Below are positions 11,735 to 55,300 of a DNA stretch of 64,000 nt, piece after piece (the first letter of the stretch is position 1; each line of letters begins with the position of its first letter). The position numbers and the translations under genes are program-made. The notes beneath the pieces were generated by a model that made no database searches, had not been told where the DNA came from, and saw only the letters and a program-made list of their open reading frames with translations. The DNA comes from Eledone cirrhosa (lineage: Eukaryota): NCBI GenBank assembly GCA_964016885.1, contig OZ024741.1, forward strand, positions 239,010,001-239,074,000. The letters are read 5' to 3'.

Positions 11735-13525
11735 CTGAGTAAATAGTGAACAACACTACCACTTATACTGTGGTTAACACTGGTTAGTAAACAGTAAACA
11801 ACACTACCACTTATAGTGTGGTTAACACTGGTTAGTAAACAGTAAACAACACTACCACTTATAGTGTGGTTAACACTGGTTAGTAAACAGTAAACAACAC
11901 TACCACTTATAGTGTGGTTAACACTGGTTAGTAAACAGTAAACAACACTACCATTTATAGTGTGGTTAACAACAATGGTTAGTAAACAGTAAACACTAAC
12001 TACCACTTATAGTGTGGTTAACAACAATGGTTAGTAAACACTAATAAACAACACTACCACTTATAGTGTGGTTAACAACAATGGTTAGTAAACAGTAAAC
12101 AACACTACCACTTATAGTGTGGTTAACAACAATGGTTAGTAAACAGTAAACAACACTACCACTTATAGTGTGGTTAACAACAATGGTTAGTAAACAGTAA
12201 ACAACACTACCACTTATACTGTGGTTAACAACAATGGTTAGTAAACAGTAAACAACACTACCACTTATACTGTGGTTAACAACAATGGTTAGTAAACAGT
12301 AAACAACACTACCACTTATAGTGTGGTTAACAACAATGGTTAGTAAACAATGAACAACACTACTACTTATACTGTGGTTAACAATGGTTAGTAAACAGTA
12401 AACAACACTACCACTTATACTGTGGTTAACAATGGTTAGTGAACAATGAACAACACTACCACTTATACTGTGGTTAACAATGGTTAGTGAACAATGAACA
12501 ACACTACCACTTATACTGTGGTTAACAATGGTTAGTGAACAATGAACAACACTACCACTTATACTGTGGTTAACAATGGTTAGTGAACAATGAACAACAC
12601 TACCACTTATACTGTGGTTAACAATGGTTAGTGAACAATGAACAACACTACCACTTATACTGTGGTTAACAATGGTTAGTAAACAATGAACAACACTACC
12701 ACTTATACTGTGGTTAACAATGGTTAGTGAACAATGAACAACACTACCACTTATACTGTGGTTAACAATGGTTCGTGAACAATGAACAACACTACCACTT
12801 ATACTGTGGTTAACAATGGTTAGTGAACAATGAACAACACTACCACTTATACTGTGGTTAACAATGGTTAGTGAACAATGAACAACACTACCACTTATAC
12901 TGTGGTTAACAATGGTTAGTGAACAATGAACAACACTACCACTTATACTGTGGTTAGCAATGGTTAGTGAACAATGAACAACACTACCACTTATACTGTG
13001 GTTAGCAATGGTTAGTGAACAATGAACAACACTACCACTTATACTGTGGTTAACAATGGTTAGTGAACAATGAACAACACTACCACTTATACTGTGGTTA
13101 ACAATGGTTAGTGAACAATGAACAACACTACCACTTATACTGTGGTTAACAATGGTTAGTGAACAATGAACAACACTACCACTTATACTGTGGTTAACAA
13201 TGGTTAGTGAACAATGAACAACACTACCACTTATACTGTGGTTAACAATGGTTAGTGAACAATGAACAACACTACCACTTATACTGTGGTTAACAACAAT
13301 GGTTAGTGAACAATGAACAACACTACCACTTATACTGTGGTTAACAATGGTTAGTAAACAGTGAACAACACTACCACTTATACTGTGGTTAACAACAATG
13401 GTTAGTGAACAATGAACAACACTACCACTTATACTGTGGTTAACAATGGTTAGTAAACAGTGAACAACACTACCACTTATACTGTGGTTAACAATGGTTA
13501 GTGAACAATGAACAACACTACCACA
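11735..13525. repeat. 48/51-bp minisatellite, roughly 36 copies
   Basis: Unit ttagtgaacaatgaacaacactaccacttatactgtggttaac(aac)aatgg in direct tandem with no spacers. Confidence 0.97.
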
Positions 13526-27828: not shown

Positions 27829-30800
27829 ATGTATGTATTATTTATGTATGTATTATTTATGTATGTGCTATACATGTATGTGTTATATATGTGTGTGTTA
27901 TATATGTATGTGCTATATATGTATGTGCTATATATGTATGTGCTATACATGTATGTGCTATATATGTATGTGCTATATATGTATGTGTTATATATGTATG
28001 TGCTATACATGTCTGTGTTATATATGTATGTGTTATATATGTATGTGCTATACATGTATGTGCTATATATGTATGTGCTATATATGTATGTGCTATACAT
28101 GTATGTGCTATACATGTATGTGTTATATATGTATGTGTTATATATGTATGTGCTATATATGTATGTGCTATACATGTCTGTGTTATATATGTATGTGTTA
28201 TATATGTATGTGTTATATATGTATGTGCTATATATGTATGTGCTATACATGTATGTGTTATATATGTATGTGTTATATATGTATGTGTTATATATGTATG
28301 TGCTATATATGTATGTGCTATACATGTCTGTGTTATATATGTATGTGTTATATATGTATGTGCTATATATGTATGTGCTATATATGTATGTGCTATATAT
28401 GTATGTGCTATACATGTATGTGCTATACATGTATGTGTTATATATGTATGTGTTATATATGTATGTGCTATATATGTATGTGCTATACATGTATGTGTTA
28501 TATATGTATGTGTTATATATGTATGTGTTATATATGTATGTGCTATATATGTATGTGCGATACATGTATGTGCTATACATGTATGTGTTATATATGTATG
28601 TGCTATATATGTATGTGTTATATATGTATGTGCTATATATGTATGTGCTATATATGTATGTGCTATACATGTATGTGCTATATATGTATGTGCTATATAT
28701 GTGTGTGTTATATATGTATGTGCTATATATGTATGTGCTATACATCTATGTGTTATATATGTATGTGCTATATATGTGTGTGCTATATATGTATGTGTTA
28801 TATATGTATGTGCTATATATGTATGTGCTATACATCTATGTGTTATATATGTATGTGCTATATATGTGTGTGCTATATATGTATGTGTTATATATGTATG
28901 TGCTATATATGTATGTGCTATATATGTATGTGCTATACATGTATGTGTTATATATGTATGTGCTATACATGTATGTGCTATACATGTATGTGTTATATAT
29001 GTATGTGCTATACATGTATGTGTTATATATGTATGTGCTATATATGTATGTGCTATACATGTATGTGCTATATATGTATGTGCTATATATGTTTGGGTTA
29101 TATATGTATGTGTTATATATGTATGTGCTATACATGTATGTGCTATATATGTATGTGTTATATATGTATGTGCTATATATGTATGTGCTATACATGTATG
29201 TGCTATATATGTATGTGCTATATATGTATGTGCTATACATGTATGTGTTATATATGTATGTGCTACACATGTATGTGTTATATATGTATGTGCTATATAT
29301 GTATGTGCTATACATGTATGTGCTATATATGTATGTGCTATATATGTATGTGTTATATATGTATGTGCTATACATGTATGTGCTATACATGTATGTGTTA
29401 TATATGTATGTGCTACACATGTCTGTGTTATATATGTATGTGTTATATATGTATGTGCTATACATGTATGTGCTATATATGTATGTGCTATATATGTATG
29501 TGCTATACATGTATGTGCTATACATGTATGTGTTATATATGTATGTGTTATATATGTATGTGCTATATATGTATGTGCTATACATGTATGTGTTATATAT
29601 GTATGTGTTATATATGTATGTGTTATATATGTATGTGCTATATATGTATGTGCTATATATGTATGTGTTATATATGTATGTGCTATATATGTATGTGTTA
29701 TACATGTATGTGCTATACATGTATGTGTTATATATGTATGTGCTATATATGTATGTGCTATACATGTATGTGCTATATATGTATGTGCTATATATATGTT
29801 TGGGTTATATATGTATGTGTTATATATGTATGTTTTATATATGTATGTGTTATATATGTATGTGTTATATATGTATGTGCTATATATGTATGTGCTATAT
29901 ATGTATGTGTTATATATGTATGTGCTATATATGTATGTGCTATACATGTATGTGTTATATATGTATGTGCTATATATGTATGTGCTATACATGTATGTAT
30001 TATTTATGTATGTGCTATACATGTATGTGTTATATATGTATGTGCTATACATGTATGTGTTATACATGTATGTGCTATATATGTATGTGTTATATATGTA
30101 TGTGCTATATATGTATGTGCTATATATGTATGTGTTATATATGTATGTGCTATATATGTATGTGCTATATATGTATGTGTTATATATGTATGTGCTATAT
30201 ATGTATGTGTTATATATGTATGTGCTATACATGTATGTGTTATATATGTATGTGTTATATATGTATCTGCTATACGTGTATGTATTATTTATGTATGTGC
30301 TATATATGTATGTTATATATGTATGTGCTATATATGTATGTGCTATACATGTATGTATTATTTATGTATGTGCTATATATGTATGTGCTATATATGTATG
30401 TGCTATACATGTATGTGCTATATATGTATGTGTTATATATGTATGTGCTATATATGTATGTGCTATATATGTATGTGTTATATATGTATGTGCTATATAT
30501 GTATGTGCTATATATGTATGTGTTATATATGTATGTGCTATATATGTATGTGCTATATATGTATGTGCTATACATCTATGTGTTATATATGTATGTGCTA
30601 TATATGTGTGTGTTATATATGTATGTGCTATATATGTATGTGCTATATATGTATGTGCTATACATGTATGTGTTATATATGTATGTGCTATATATGTATG
30701 TGCTATACATGTATGTATTATTTATGTATGTGCTATACATGTATGTGTTATATATGTATGTGCTATATATGTATGTGTTATATATGTATGTGCTATATAT

Positions 30801-32375
30801 GTATGTGCTATACATGTATGTGTTTTATATGTATGTGTTATATATGTATGTGTTATATATGTATGTGCTATATATGTATGTGTTATATATGTATGTGCTA
30901 TACATGTATGTGTTATATATGTATGTGTTATATATGTATGTGTTATATATGTATGTGTTATATATGTATGTGCTATATATGTATGTGCTATACATGTATG
31001 TGTTATATATGTATGTGTTATATATGTATGTGTTATATATGTATGTGCTATATATGTATGTGTTATATATGTATGTGTTATATATGTATGTGCTATATAT
31101 GTATGTGTTATATATGTATGTGCTATACATGTATGTGTTATATATGTATGTGTTATATATGTATGTGTTATATATGTATGTGTTATATATGTATGTGCTA
31201 TACATGTATGTGTTATATATGTATGTGTTATATATGTATGTGTTATATATGTATGTGTTATATATGTATGTGTTATATATGTATGTGTTATATATGTATG
31301 TGCTATATATGTATGTGCTATATATGTATGTGCTATATATGTATGTGTTATATATGTATGTGCTATATATGTATGTACTATATATGTATGTGCTATACAT
31401 GTATGTGTTTTATATGTATGTGTTATATATGTATGTGTTATATATGTATGTGTTATATATGTATGTGTTATATATGTATGTGTTATATATGTATGTGTTA
31501 TATATGTATGTGTTATATATGTATGTGCTATATATGTATGTGCTATACATGTATGTGCTATATATGTATGTGTTATATATGTATGTGTTATATATGTATG
31601 TGTTATATATGTATGTATTATTTATGTATGTGCTATACATGTATGTGTTATATATGTGTGTTCTATATATGTATGTGTTATATAAGTATGTGTTATATAT
31701 GTATGTGCTATACATGTATGTGTTATATATGTATGTGCTATATATGTATGTGTTATATATGTATGTGCTATATATGTATGTGTTATATATGTATGTGTTA
31801 TATATGTATGTGCTATATATGTGTGTGTTATATATGTATGTGCTATATATGTATGTGCTATACATGTATGTGTTATATATGTATGTGCTATACATGTATG
31901 TGCTATATATGTATGTGCTATATATGTATGTGCTATACATGTATGTGTTATATATGTATGTGCTATATATGTATGTGTTATATATGTATGTGTTATATAT
32001 GTATGTGTTATATATGTATGTACTATATATGTATGTGCTATATATGTATGTGCTATATATGTATGTGTTATATATGTATGTGCTATATATGTATGTGCTA
32101 TATATGTATGTGTTATATATGTACGTGCTATATATGTATGTGCTATATATGTATGTGTTATATATGTATGTGCTATATATGTATGTGCTATATATGTATG
32201 TGCTATATATGTATGTGTTATATATGTATGTGCTATATATGTATGTGCTATATATGTATGTGTTATATATGTATGTACTATATATGTATGTGCTGTATAT
32301 GTATGTGCTATATATGTATGTGCTATATATGTATGTGTTATATATGTATGTGTTATATATGTATGTGCTATATGT
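27829..32375. repeat. 15-bp satellite TAYATGTATGTGYTA, about 300 copies, decaying to TG-rich repeats until ~32830
   Basis: The period-15 tandem is directly visible. It explains the 1300-1650 aa pseudo-ORFs. Confidence 0.98.
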
Positions 32376-33603
32376 GTGTGTGTGCTATATGTGTGTGTGC
32401 TATATTTGTGTGTGCGTGTGCGTATGCATTGTGTATGCATGTACACTGTGTACACATGACGTATGTGTGTGTGCTGTGTGTGTGTATGTGTGCTAAGTCT
32501 CTGTTGTGTATGTGCTGTGTGTGTATGCGTTGTGTATGTGCTGTGTGTGTATGTGTTGTGTATGTGCTGTGTGTGTATGTGTTGTGTATGTGCTCTGTGT
32601 CTGTGTTGTGTATGTGTTGTGTGTGTGTTGTGTATGTGCTGTGTGTGTATGTGTTGTGTATGTGCTGTGTGTGTGTGTTGTGTATGTGTTGTGTGAGTAT
32701 GCGTTGTGTATGTGCTGTGTGTGTATGTGTTGTGTATGTGCTGTGTGTGTTGTGTATGTGTTGTGTATGTGCTGTGTGTGTGTGTTGTGTATGTGTTGTG
32801 TGAGTATGTGTTGTGTATGTGCTGTGTGTGCATGCATCTGTGTTGTATGTGCCATACGTGTGCAAATGACACATACATATAATCTTATATCAACCTTTAT
32901 TCAGTGCTAAGACTTATACGAGGTCAGATCTGTATGCATGTGTGTATGTGTGTGTGTGTGTGTGTGCGCCTGTGTGGGGGGGGGGGGGCATGTGTGTATG
33001 TGATGAGTATGTATCCAGGAAAGAAAGAGATAAACGAACTCTTTTCTTGATCTTAACTTATATCATGATTTACAATATAATTCCTATTACTTTTACAAAA
33101 GAAGTATGGACACAATAATAATAATTAAGTTGCTGAAGCATAAATTGATGATGATAATGATGATGATGGTGATCGTGATGATGATGATGATGATGATGAT
33201 TCATTGGGAGAAAGCTACATATTTTGGTGAAGGATATAACTGATTATATCAACTACAATACTTGACTGCTGCTTATTGTTTAAAATACTGGAAGTTTAAA
33301 AGGTTAAGTTAACCCTGCAGGATTTGAACTCAGAATGTGAAGAGATAGGAATAAATATCACAAGACCTTTTATCCAATGCTCTAACGATTCTGCCATTCA
33401 AGCACCTTAATGAAGTTTATATCTTTATTTGCTACCAGGGCAACAAAGATGCAACATTATAAAGTAATAGAAAACAAGAAATGTGTGCCTATGTGTGTGG
33501 CTGTGTGTGTGGCTGCGTGTGTATGTTGTTATACTTTGGATGGGTCATGCTGCCAATAAAAACACATGTACCTATGAGTTTCACTTCAGTTTTATTATTA
33601 GTC

Positions 33604-48281: not shown

Positions 48282-48462
48282 TGGCAGTATCGGTAGAGGG
48301 TCGGACGCGATGCTTTGACGTATAGAGTTACGTCCCTTGCCATTCTGAGTTCAAATCTCGCCGAGGTTAACTTTGCCTTTCATCCTTATGGGGTCGATAA
48401 AATAAAGTACCAGTAATGCACTGAGTAATTGCTGGCCTTGTGCCAAAAGTAGAAACAATTAT
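48282..48462 (+). mobile_element. SINE family 2
   Basis: Close match to the other copies. Confidence 0.88.
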
Positions 48463-49152
48463 TTATGAATGAACAGCATTTGTCCTATAATATTGTCAGA
48501 CGATGTAAAAACAGGCAGCTTGGGTGTAAAGCATACCCTTCTTTTGTTATGACCCTTAATACACATTTAAACATTTATCCTATATTTTCTGAATATTTCT
48601 ATACTCAAACATGAGATGATTATTTAGCTCTATTCTTTTTTATATCATATTTAACAGCACAGTTAAGATGTTTCCATACATCATTTTCTAACAATCTTCT
48701 TCCTATTGTACTCAAAAGATTAATAGGAATTATCTTCCTTCCTAAAATTTACTACCATATGCAGTCATATAGATGGCAAATTGGCTCACTGTGTTCTCTG
48801 ATTTCAAATCCCATAAAGGTCAACTTTTCATCCTTTTGAGGTCGATAAAAAAAGTGCCAGTCCACTAGAGGAGTCAAATATTTCTTTATATCTTTTTTTC
48901 ACTTCTCTATCATTCTCTGGAAGAAATCGTTTGTGTTCAAACATGGAGAGGAGATGGGCACCGTCAGGTTTAAAGGGTCCATACATACATACATACAAAA
49001 ATACATACATACACTTACTCGCTCATATAGCAGTTATGTTTATATTTACATTTCAGGTTTTGACTTTTACATAAGTCACATTTTGCTTTCCATAAATATT
49101 CTTTGAGACTTTGCTTGTCGCTATGCTTAAATCAACAATAAAAAAATTTTAA

Positions 49153-50174: not shown

Positions 50175-50229
50175 ACTGCCTGAAGAGGTCACAGCCAAAG
50201 ATGGCTGTCACTGAAATATATATAGCAGT
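50175..50229 (+). ncRNA. Type-I hammerhead, intact core, within insert 50063-50418
   Basis: ACTGC-CTGAAGA-GGTCACAGCC/GGCTGTCACT-GAAA-TATATATA-GCAGT-AATAAA. Confidence 0.88.
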
Positions 50230-50510: not shown

Positions 50511-50620
50511 CGTTTCTGAATTTGTTTACCAAGATTCTTTATCTGAAATCGTGTGTTGAAACCAATATTGTTATACAACATGACCCTCCCAAAGTATAGC
50601 AATATATATATATATGTATA

Positions 50621-50664
<44 letters not shown>

Positions 50665-50668
<4 letters not shown>

Positions 50669-51625
50669 ATAAGGAGTATTTAACAATGCCAGGACCGGTT
50701 GTATCTCAGCGTACTCAATAGATAATGTAGGATACATTCCCAGAGTATACACAGTTATTCACTTCAATATAACACACGTAAAAGGGTGCCTATAGTAGTT
50801 CCCGGACTCGAGTTTCGGCCACACTTAATGCAGCAGTAGGGTGCACTGCACCCTCTGTCTGCATATATTATGCAACAATGCATAATCGGCGCATGTGGCT
50901 TCATCAGCGGGTGTCACCTAATCAAGAACCAAGCGATCGACAGAATTCAACTCCAGTCCTTGCCGGCTATGACTGTTTGTGACGGCCGACACAGTAAAGT
51001 GATTAGCAACTGGAATCTGATACAATTCCATCCCCCGATCAGCCACTTATTTACAAATTTACGTAGGGGCAGGAGATTAGAAAACAAATATTTCCGCTCC
51101 CGTCTAAAGCTCTCAGCCAACGTGTCTCAAACACAAATTAATAAGATAGTGAAAAGTTGGTTATTAGAAAAAGCTGTCCCACATCGTTGTATAATAGAAT
51201 GGTAGCATTTGGCTCTAGTCTTCAAGTTCCATGGCTAGAGGATAGCGATAGTAACAGTGGTAGTGCCTAAAACCTTTATCCAGACATTAAATGCCAGCAT
51301 CTATTATAGAGTAGCGTGCTGGTTAGCGACAGCCACGTGTGTAAACCAGTCTATTTCACAACTCAAACGATTCAATAAGTGAGTGAGAGAGAAAATTAAT
51401 AGCAGGAATTAGAGCACATATCAAAACAAAACACAATAAAAGAAGTGAAAGATTGTTTAACTTACTCTCATTAGTCTGCTTGTTGGGAGATAATAATAAT
51501 AAGGAGTTGATGGACCCAGCATATTTATCAATGCCAGGACCGGTTGTATCTCAGCGTACTCAATAGGTAATGTAGAATACATTCCCAGAGCATACACATA
51601 GTTATTTGCTTCAATACAACACACA
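50665..51625 (-). mobile_element. Non-coding retrozyme-like or mini-Penelope element with ~115-bp terminal direct repeats
   Basis: Repeats at about 50665-50777 and 51496-51625 (aatgccaggaccggttgtatctcagcgtactcaatag...). TA-rich flanks. Confidence 0.75.
50801..50911 (-). ncRNA. Type-I hammerhead with branched stem II
   Basis: Minus strand reads CCCG-CTGATGA-AGCCACA...TGTGGCC-GAAA-CTCGAG-TC-CGGG. Confidence 0.9.
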
Positions 51626-52181: not shown

Positions 52182-52374
52182 AGGGCGGTGGATTGGCAGT
52201 ATCGGTAGAGGGTAGGATGTCAGGCTTTGACGCATATAGTTACGGCCCTTTCCATTCTGAGTTCAAATCCCGCCGAGGTCAACTTTGCCTTTCATCCTTA
52301 CGGGGTCGATAAAATAAAGTACCAGTAATGTACTGGATAATTGCCGGCCTTGTGCCAAAAGTAGAAACAATTAT
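52182..52374 (+). mobile_element. Full-length SINE family 2 with TSD attattgattgttta
   Basis: A 15-bp direct repeat flanks the element. Confidence 0.9.
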
Positions 52375-55300
52375 TGATTGTTTACAAAACTCTCCCCAGC
52401 TATCATTCTATTAACCCTTTCTTTACCATATGTCTAATGAAGGATACTGTCTATGATTTTTAAATAATTAAGAATTTGAAGGCATTTATTAAAATAACTA
52501 ACTTTCTCATTATTAAGCTAGTGTTTGGAACATAACTTAGAAGAATTTAGTGGATGGAAATGTATTGGGAGAGACAGTTTTCAAGTTAATGAATTCAGTA
52601 GAACTTTATTGAAAGCAAGCAACTGCCAGAGGCAACACAATTTAGCTATTTGTCTTACTGATGACATAAAGGTAAAATCTACATTCAAATATGGAAACTT
52701 GGCATTTTATTTTTCACAAATATTATTGTCTTGCTCCTGAATAGGATACTAGTCATAAATGTGTTTTCCTCAAAACTACACTAACAGGATTTGAATTCCA
52801 GTCATTAACTATCAAACCTCTATGTTTAACATCCAGTCAACATCACAGGAAAACAAGTAAATGGATAGGGTATTTGACTCACAATAAGGTCATGAGTTTG
52901 ATTCATGGTAACGTGTTGTCTCTTTGAGCAAAATAATTTATTTCATGTTGCTCCAGTCCACTCAGCTGGGGAAAATGAGTTGTATCTGTAATTCAAGTGG
53001 CCAACCTTGCCATTCACTCATGCTGAATCTCCTTGAGAACTACACTAAGAGGATACATGTCTGTGGAATGCTCAACTGCTTCTTGCACATTAATTTCACA
53101 AGCAGACTGTTCCTTTGTTGGAATAACTGGAACACTCATCGTAACCAATGGAGGTTTAACACACACCACCACTAAAAATGTTTGAATAAATTCAACCTAA
53201 GCAGGACTTGAACCACAGAATCATAACTTTGGAACTTGTAATGTCTGAAGCAACTCAACAAACCACCAATGGGTTGTATTACATTGTCATTGTTATTGTT
53301 GTTTAGTATCAGGAGTATGTTCAACTGTATTATCTAAGGTGGCCTTTTCATATTTAAAAATGTATGGTAGACTCACTCACTGGTGCAACACACTGTATCT
53401 TTGTATGGTTCTGTAGTGACCTACATTCTGAGGGCTCTTGAATACATAGCGATTGGCTGAACTGAGCCAAACAATGCACGCAGAATATATTCAAGAGCCC
53501 TCAGAATGTAGGATTGTAGTGACCTAGAGTTCTATCTTGTTGTATAGTACGAATTACTATAGATGATTGCCTGCAAGGTAGTAGTGCTGGTTCTATGACA
53601 AAAAGTACCCAGTCCACCCTGTAAGATGGTAGTGCTGGTACCATGAAAAAGTCTCCCAGTACATGCTGTGAAGCAGGTAACATTAGGAAGTACAACCAGC
53701 AGTAGGAAACCAAGCCGACATCAGTATGCATGAGTCAGACATGGTTACCTGACCTGTCTGGCCTTATAATGTAACAGCCCATCTAACCCATGCAAGCAGG
53801 GAAAATAAACATTAAATGGTGATGATGATGATTGTGTGGTGTCATTGTGTGGTGTTGTGCAGTGCTGTTGTATGGTGTCACTATGTAGTTAATGTATAGT
53901 ATTGTAGTGTGGTGTCATTGAGGGTTGTTGTGTTGTGTCACTATATAATGTTGCTGCATGATATCAGTGTGTGGTTCTACTTCATTATATCACTGTGGTG
54001 TATGTGTGTATGGGTGATGCTACTATATATGACACTAGAGCTTAGTGATGTCAAAGCACATAATTGTCTTTGATCAACATAGTTGAAAGAAAATTTATAT
54101 AATTGGGAAATTTATATTAAAACAAAAATTAGTTAGTTGTAAAAATAATTGCTCCAATTCATTCCATTCAACCATGGAAAAGCTAATTGTTAACTGTGTG
54201 CGCGCAGACACACACACACACACACACACACATACACACATAGATTAGGTATATAATTATAAAGTTTGATATATTTTTTCACCACCCCCTTTCAAAAGAT
54301 CTTGCAGCTAAAGCTTCTGGAATATGTGACAGTTTTTGCTGCATGTAGAATGTGTTTAAAAGAAGAAAAATGCCATCTGATGCTATCTGGCAGTAAAATA
54401 TTTATCTTCTCCAAAATACGGTATTTTTATAAATATTTTTATTTAGGTTAGCATTGGCTTCTATTCAGTTTTGGTTAATTGCTCTTGAACTAAATCTTCT
54501 GCCATAATAATTGATAAAAGCCAATGGAATTCTGCACAATATTCACTGCATGATCGATAACAAGGAAAAGACATTTTTTTTCCATATCTGTTATGGTTGA
54601 CCAAATTCCTTGGAGTTTGAGATGCATGTCAGATATCAGAAGTGTCACAATCAAGGAAGATGGATAAAAATGACTGGAGCGTAAACATGTCATTTGGGTC
54701 AGCAGGCAATGCAAAGCCAACCACAATGTAGGGAAGATGTGATTGGATGTCACACTTTTATCCCATTTCCACCCCAATCTATCTACAGTTATGGCAACCA
54801 CTATATCATGATGTAGTGCAGCTAATGAAACGTACACAACATTATAGCTATATTCATTCATTTTTGCAAACTTCCAAGAAATGCATAACATAGATAAGCA
54901 GCATACATATATCTTACGTATTTTTACAAATGGTTGCCTTTTTATATATATATATATATATATATCTTCTTTCTTTTCTCTTAGCTGCATTTTTATTCAG
55001 CAAAGATCTGTAGAGATTAGGGGAGTAAAAATGACTACCATTTGGCCATTACTAATGTATTTTGAGCAACCCCAACCACTACCACCACCATCATACCCAC
55101 TATAGCTTCCATCACTACCACCAATGCCATTTCAGTGTGTAGATACATTAAGGTTTATAAGAAAATAATGATACATGATGAAATAGTAGAGATAGGAGAC
55201 CAGCTAGAATATTATTCCATGTTTTATACTATGTCAGGTTCAAAAAGAAATGATATGGAAACACATTATGTAAATCATATTTTGTTTTTCCCCTCACAGC

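Follow-up and report, generated by a model that had tools for sequence, protein, structure and literature searches.

A non-coding, hammerhead-bearing repeat family of Eledone cirrhosa with a retrozyme-like unit and the insertion marks of Penelope-like elements

Introduction

How did an insertion that encodes no protein, carries a hammerhead ribozyme motif and has its own tail on either side come to be copied into the genome of Eledone cirrhosa? The locus lies in a 64,000-nt window—the whole stretch of DNA analysed here (assembly GCA_964016885.1, contig OZ024741.1, positions 239,010,001 to 239,074,000 of the forward strand)—and bears on two questions that are open more widely: the origin of copies exceeding one unit in Penelope-like elements (PLEs), and whether retrozyme circles are true transposition intermediates. 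Here, we establish the anatomy of the insertion, its repeat family, fixed end and target, its lack of coding capacity and the selection on its fold. We conclude that the unit is likely a protein-free, 846-nt retroposon of the metazoan retrozyme type, with predicted hammerhead cleavage, a likely circular RNA and a Penelope-like reverse transcriptase (RT)/GIY-YIG enzyme that likely acts in trans to insert copies into (TA)n. The genomic record of the family points to a unit-length intermediate; reverse transcription has one defined starting point, and the RNA is under selection for how its full length folds. This makes the unit a convenient substrate for in vitro work using PLE enzymes encoded by the same genome.

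Results

Anatomy of the insertion and its surroundings

The whole insertion (50666..51624, minus strand) comprises 1.15 units of an 846-nt non-coding repeat, as delimited by its sequence and by alignment to the family majority, from which it departs by ~6% substitutions (60 mismatches in 966 columns). Read along the minus strand, an upstream partial unit made of tail alone (51624-51496) is followed by a 584-nt non-coding body with predicted long hairpins (50912..51495), a type I hammerhead motif with a 4-bp stem I (50801..50911; recognised from sequence and a pattern match, and below the Rfam cut-off) and a 3' tail (50666..50800) that runs up to the family's fixed 3' end—the same order that the initial annotation had given, with ~590 bp devoid of a recognisable ORF between the first tail and the ribozyme. 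This downstream tail has lost 15 nt shortly before its end; in intact copies, the fixed 3' end lies 157 nt after the predicted cut site. A (TA)n target tract, found by a tandem-repeat scan (50602..50668, no strand assigned), follows the tail on the minus strand. Self-comparison gave a repeat spacing of 845 nt, and the identical 845-nt joint was also found in other contigs (from one sample, apparently genomic). The upstream tail copy begins 27 nt past the cut site, as a count confirmed; judging by the sequence, the copy was simply truncated on its 5' side where a short AT run occurs, and the data lend no support to a meaning of the offset itself. The window copy holds one hammerhead only; it is a dead end.

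The surroundings are themselves rich in repeats. A second, unrelated type I hammerhead-like motif (50176-50228, plus strand; core CUGAAGA, 10-bp stem II, an AT palindrome in stem III, fold z -2.9) sits inside a repeat also present at locus L203 and adjoins an inverted duplication at ~51.7-52.3 kb or 49.3-50.1 kb (a self-match of approximate position). A SINE-like repeat of ~180 nt occurs at 48282-48466 and 52194-52378, and also at L048, L063, L065, L070, L071, L085, L143 and L344. It has independently inserted at the internal TTA junction of the 846-nt unit in at least six copies, with others directly after the 3' end, which suggests a TTA target preference. Further away, the window contains a 48-nt tandem array (11747-13524; 36 copies, 96% matches) and a 15-nt tandem array (27829-32415; 306 copies).

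A dispersed family with one fixed end

A DNA search of the 3.0-Gb genome returned 3,743 first-look candidates, the best 40 of which were scored. An exact 20-mer at the ribozyme has 243 genome occurrences (control, 0) and an exact 13-mer at the 3' end at least 936 (control, 5), and the family is present at about a thousand or more TA-repeat sites. The majority unit built from 44 full copies is 846 nt long with a GC content of 42%. We mapped 90 loci from the first 100 listed matches of the ribozyme 20-mer, the remaining 10 being loci that had entered the set through other searches; in these motif-sampled loci, insertions have a median length of 447 nt, 13 of the 90 exceed one unit and the longest measures 1,281 nt. 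Across the mapped family, copies are dispersed and span 0.2-1.5 units. Monomers running from hammerhead to hammerhead are present among the sampled loci, and none of these loci holds two or more full units (best 40 candidates scored per search, including a search with a 1.45-unit query), the longest reaching ~1.5-1.6 units.

The initial annotation had expected permuted copies with varying end points. Inspection of the genome copies gave a different picture: the 3' end is constant and the 5' end alone varies, by random truncation, with 242 of 316 unique segments stopping at unit 843-846 (internal junction segments included). Of 92 sampled matches, 75 have TA at their 3' end; on the 5' side, 114 of 141 flanks contain TA no more than 25 nt away. 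Inverted arms occur at eight loci and terminate at scattered sites; a second fixed end, such as the 30-40 nt tail that arises when RT can start at two neighbouring sites, was not seen in these copies, whose 3' ends lie at unit 846 and 843 only. Copies were also encountered repeatedly in TA tracts that end other repeat families (flanks of L062/L167, L074/L155/L164, L141/L285, L143/L289, L073/L271 and L260/L267), indicating that such tracts act as nested insertion hot spots.

An older subfamily differs at 135 of 737 positions, has an identical layout and carries a GUA triplet. The tree of copies is ladder-like with a median end branch of 0.044 (~4%), and the family therefore looks old. Two hammerheads were found at 10 sampled loci, 2 of which pass a loose intact-core test in both motifs, and on such sequence grounds the family may be inactive.

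A type I hammerhead motif with a branched stem II

All elements of a type I hammerhead core (C3-A9, G12-A14, A15.1-U16.1 and H17) and three helices are present in the window sequence, on the minus strand throughout. The core CUGAUGA (C3-A9) lies at 50901..50907, GAAA at 50813..50816 and GUC at 50805..50807; stem I joins 50911-50908 with 50804-50801 in 4 bp, and cleavage is predicted after GUC, between 50805 and 50804. Stem II takes up 84 nt (50817..50900) and begins with a mismatch next to the core, where A50900 is apposed to C50817, continues as a 7-bp base helix (50899-50893 with 50824-50818) and then opens into a three-way junction with two branch hairpins: hairpin A (50867..50886; 8 bp, 97.8% of cells paired in 88 copies) and hairpin B (50828..50864; 16 bp with bulges, 94.3% of cells paired in 88 copies). 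The multi-way junction with both branches and the A-C opposition in place of a first G-C pair had already been noted in the initial annotation, and both are borne out by the sequence. The core pattern matches once in the window against 0.01 matches expected, and the motif region folds with a z of -3.4 (0 of 200 shuffles equally stable); on these two grounds the motif exceeds chance. The Rfam model Hammerhead_1 gave a sub-threshold match (18.7 bits against a cut-off of 34; E 0.21), and a scan of the window at the gathering score found nothing.

Stem III is minimal (2 bp) and belongs to an 8-nt palindrome (50806..50813) with a self-duplex energy of -10.7 kcal/mol, which is predicted to pair with that of a second hammerhead in a dimer form. 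Folding also predicts a decoy hairpin (50783..50804) that would compete with stem I, retained in the old subfamily with another loop and weakened in the window copy; predicted decoy partners exist for both stem I strands, and the minimum-energy structure is more stable than the active fold by 3.6-8.1 kcal/mol.

The core sites show no subfamily-level change except at H17, where C becomes U or A; one lineage carries GUU at the cut (21 of 173 copies). The G10.1-C11.1 pair is absent, with A standing opposite C in 146 and opposite A in 14 of the same 173 copies, and the G-C pair that follows this first stem II position is lost in one lineage. An alternative reading of the stem II base, an extra A followed by G-C, was considered and is contradicted by the variants with A at 11.1. 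Given the distribution of C and A at this site, a mismatch adjoining the core is a better reading than an unpaired base. Covariation in the stem II branches, which the initial annotation had put forward for testing, did not materialise in 88 copies: hairpin A showed no covariation above shuffles, hairpin B had zero two-sided changes, and the inherited changes in stem II kept pairing in 4 of 6 cases against 4.2 expected, that is, with no excess. Support for the branches consequently comes from their folding energy and from the conservation of their sequence. The base helix holds a single series at 50896/50821, from A-U through G-U to G-C (26 copies with G-C). The junction strand is complementary to a GGCG that lies upstream of stem I and could form a pseudoknot with it; one of the pairs is broken in 40 copies, and no change compensates for this.

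Selection on the fold of the whole unit

Folded as a circle, the unit RNA yields a z of -5.4 (40 shuffles), and the ribozyme strand folds better than its complement (-266.8 kcal/mol sense vs -213.3 antisense). The decayed window copy by itself gave z -2.2 for the sense and -3.1 for the antisense strand; the fold signal thus belongs to the family. Of 70 inherited changes that fall on paired sites, 51 leave the pair intact, against 34.1 expected with type matching (p<1e-5), an effect not seen in the antisense fold used as a control (22 of 63 kept vs 19.0 expected), and rare post-insertion changes keep pairing at 149 of 834. Within the body (unit 1-575), inherited changes kept 40 of 57 pairs (25.2 expected). 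Transversion sites avoid stems (15 of 46), and two-sided changes were found at unit pairs 225/276, 508/526, 190/299 and 249/257, and at 598/673 in the stem II base helix. Between the old and young subfamilies, 34 of 61 changed pairs are kept and 27 broken, with slid controls at 27-44%. These pair-keeping counts are somewhat biased by the fold having been predicted from the majority sequence. At the level of the family, the whole unit is under selection for its predicted fold.

Changes private to single copies are balanced between the strands (A>G 2.67 vs T>C 2.64 per kb). Among inherited changes family-wide (unit 1-846), A>G exceed T>C by 40 to 20, which could reflect either A-to-I editing of the RNA or the acceptance of G-U pairs in stems; editing marks recurring inside a single insertion were not seen.

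Coding capacity and the enzyme partner

The longest stop-to-stop frame in the 846-nt unit has 95 codons, and an RT plus GIY-YIG ORF is absent from it. Profile and translated searches of 80 PLE or hammerhead loci gave no credible match of the unit to PLE frames. Moreover, no coding PLE sharing sequence with the unit was found in a search that covered 80 loci, core plus palindrome patterns and three head-to-head PLE neighbours. Coding PLEs with RT and GIY-YIG are abundant in the genome, among them Neptune-type ORFs with a CX2-5CxxC linker (clade names follow motifs in Craig et al. 2021). Intact Neptune-type ORFs are found at L121, L122 and L123, where long open PLE frames of 938, 844 and 1,096 aa contain RT and GIY-YIG as well as a linker resembling a Zn finger. 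From the insertion marks, as they are described in Craig et al. 2021 and Frangieh et al. 2024, we infer that the unit is mobilised by a PLE. At locus L421 (G000:C2:230194500-230201300), a 1.01-unit copy lies head to head, with no TA, with a 5'-truncated, inverted and decayed Neptune-type ORF—a single case of possible co-insertion.

The copies might instead stem from a rare PLE that does code for protein, as its pseudo-LTR ends after 5' truncation. Their layout does fit PLE ends generally, and pieces of PLE ORF occur in 5 of 141 distinct flanks (6 records, 5 loci), but all of these protein matches are on the opposite strand or 544 nt away. In addition, none of the 141 distinct flanks, taken from 150 loci, has a same-strand PLE ORF running into the unit, and all 30 loci found via the body start continue upstream into the tail again or into TA, as do both loci of an 18%-diverged subfamily when followed past that point. 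The unit is therefore not a coding 3' UTR, the outcome that the initial annotation had named as fatal to its own reading. We consider the pseudo-LTR explanation largely refuted already and its truth very improbable.

Circle, linear precursor or template jumping

Returning to a mobile non-coding unit, the likely reading, the question becomes which RNA served as template. In the sequence of events that we consider likely, transcription would start from a locus that exceeds 1.3 units and contains two hammerheads (10 such loci were sampled); the two hammerheads would pair through the palindromic stem III and cut, as is known from PLE hammerheads; the monomer would fold into a strongly paired RNA, in agreement with the selection on its pairs, and would then be ligated. 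An enzyme, presumably of the PLE type, would nick (TA)n and begin cDNA at the fixed internal site 157 nt past the cut, in keeping with the observed end and target. The cDNA would halt randomly, mostly inside one round and at times after up to 1.5 rounds, and join through short AT matches, a pattern visible in the copies. All copies longer than 157 nt cross the predicted cut site, and no indels occur there in 97 hammerhead copies. No RT stop or pile-up marks the site (0 of ~22 listed junctions exactly there), copies of 157 nt are not in excess, and those junctions that do lie close to the cut gather 7-9 nt downstream of it, at a TATA match, resembling the AT hot spot at unit 626. This leaves three candidates for the template: circular RNA, a precursor that stayed uncut, or a monomer across whose ends the RT jumped precisely.

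The comparison of repeat halves within insertions speaks to this choice. Where an insertion contains redundant halves (32 cases), 151 non-majority bases are common to both, against 44.5 expected from random copies, and calls at diagnostic sites are concordant in 398 of 474 cases against 286 expected (32 insertions, several subfamilies). Shared subfamily alleles on a ladder-like tree are what passage through a unit-length RNA predicts, and on sequence grounds they would not be expected from separate inheritance of two repeats. Only one fully private change is shared between halves. Together with the kept pairs, the allele sharing favours a structured unit-length, probably circular, RNA as template. 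Against the circle, subfamilies active at different times would likewise give concordant repeats under template jumping.

It seems unlikely that the template was an uncut linear transcript of a 1.3-1.6-unit master locus with an internal promoter, its hammerhead rarely active or serving as a protein-binding fold, with the unit remaining a PLE passenger all the same. Such a transcript would account for the lack of copies beyond ~1.6 units among the sampled loci, for the rise in stop rate past 1.2 units and for the weak predicted active fold, and it has a precedent in Frangieh et al. 2024 (PMC11167929), where uncut RNA was the main template of a PLE in vitro. Its two repeats would nonetheless drift separately, contrary to the alleles found in both halves on a ladder-like tree, and the 5' ends of long copies are scattered over unit 346 to 777 with no wall. 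Still less probable, in our estimate, is a cut linear monomer whose 5' end the RT leaves by a jump, resuming at the 3' end either of that monomer or of a second one. Jumping would explain unit-length inheritance with no need for ligation, 4 of 30 junction-spanning loci have 5' ends near the cut (unit 686-697), and insertion L072 is discordant at four diagnostic sites; the indel-free cut site in 97 copies, the missing excess of 157-nt copies and the displacement of near-cut junctions to a TATA match of the same kind as at unit 626 argue against it. The stop rate increases past the second hammerhead (mean run 91 vs 362 nt, where sampling is biased), a rise that either a linear precursor of finite length or strand displacement on a circle would explain. 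Further points against the preferred, ligated-circle model are the weak active fold, the loss of G10.1-C11.1, the GUU lineage, the lack of a coding PLE sharing sequence, the absence of two full units from the sampled loci, the uncut template of Frangieh et al. 2024 and the small share of two-hammerhead loci with intact cores. From the initial reading as cDNA of a circular or tandem ~840-nt RNA mobilised by a Penelope RT, non-coding retroposition beyond one unit and PLE-type insertion marks thus stand, with circularity as the probable part.

Long-stem-II hammerheads elsewhere in the genome

A pattern for other long-stem-II motifs gave 4,134 matches in the genome, compared with 15 in the control. 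Thirty retrieved motifs represent several unrelated families with stem II of 81-95 nt and A-A, U-U or G-U beside the core. One such family (L210, with L326 and L327) has a 95-nt stem II with a three-way junction, a z of -5.2 and inverted arms. Two others, L324 and L336, sit 3' of same-strand coding frames: the L336 hammerhead lies downstream of an RT and GIY-YIG frame, and the L324 frame carries RWK, DKT and CxCX5C motifs, as given for the Hydra clade, with no Pfam match. The long stem II and the non-G-C first pair are accordingly not unique to this unit but shared with coding PLEs of the same genome. L324 (G000:C1:10281900-10288900), L322 and L323 are copies of a coding PLE that is very abundant; its unit measures 3,564 nt, its hammerhead has a stem II of 91 nt, inverted arms facing outwards are frequent, and its RT escapes Pfam.

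We tentatively raise a broader proposal, to which we give somewhat less credence than to its negation: that the PLEs and passengers of Eledone cirrhosa may share an undescribed hammerhead class (extended or branched stem II of 80-115 nt, no G10.1-C11.1, missed by Rfam; 4,134 matches in at least seven families, with Hydra-type and other coding PLEs) and, jointly with this, that its 846-nt member may have long evolved as a viroid-like RNA circle with the whole fold selected and decoy hairpins switching the ribozyme off after ligation. A literature search found no account of long or branched stem II in PLE hammerheads, and supplementary tables may contain such motifs. Long-stem-II hammerheads that fall below Rfam thresholds also imply that animal ribozyme counts may be too low.

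Discussion

We infer that the unit works like a metazoan non-LTR retrozyme as regards cleavage, ligation, a circular template and a PLE enzyme. Retrozymes as PLE passengers are a class already published. Non-LTR retrozymes are described with units of 51-972 bp and a link to PLE pseudo-LTRs (Li, Clavereau and Pollet 2026, bioRxiv 10.64898/2026.07.22.740005), and neither the length nor the PLE link is therefore new: the unit, which the initial annotation had thought unusually long, falls inside this range, though it exceeds the 170-400 nt typical of metazoan retrozymes (Cervera and de la Peña 2020, PMC7229834). With the elements of these two papers it shares a non-coding unit, one type I hammerhead, a GC content below 45%, a strongly self-paired predicted circle and autonomous PLEs alongside. 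It differs from them in its dispersed insertions of 0.2-1.5 units—theirs being defined by tandem arrays—as well as in its 84-nt branched stem II, in having no sequence tie to a named PLE pseudo-LTR (80 loci) and in being known here from genome sequence alone.

The insertions resemble those of EN+ PLEs of the Neptune and Hydra clades (Craig et al. 2021, PMC8557442; Frangieh et al. 2024, PMC11167929) in forming partial tandems whose internal 3' end is fixed, in being truncated on the 5' side and targeted to (TA)n, and in having inverted arms and a hammerhead near the 3' end. In contrast to those elements, the unit has no ORF and its inverted arms lack the second fixed start site with its 30-40 nt tail. 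As for the ribozyme, the minimal and variant type I hammerheads of PLEs (Cervera and de la Peña 2014, PMC4209133) likewise have a short stem I, a palindromic minimal stem III and predicted dimer action, together with a base left unpaired where the 5' strand of stem II begins; their stem II has 6-8 bp, unlike the long, three-way-junction stem II found here, and the G10.1-C11.1 pair, highly conserved in that description and preceded by the unpaired base, is here replaced by A opposite C or A. Finally, the non-autonomous elements of the Chlamys clade, e.g., MRC1 (Craig et al. 2021, PMC8557442), are non-coding PLE passengers that form pseudo-LTRs, as the present family may be; according to that description, they differ in generally sharing 3' sequence with an autonomous family, and Chlamys elements mostly lack canonical hammerheads.
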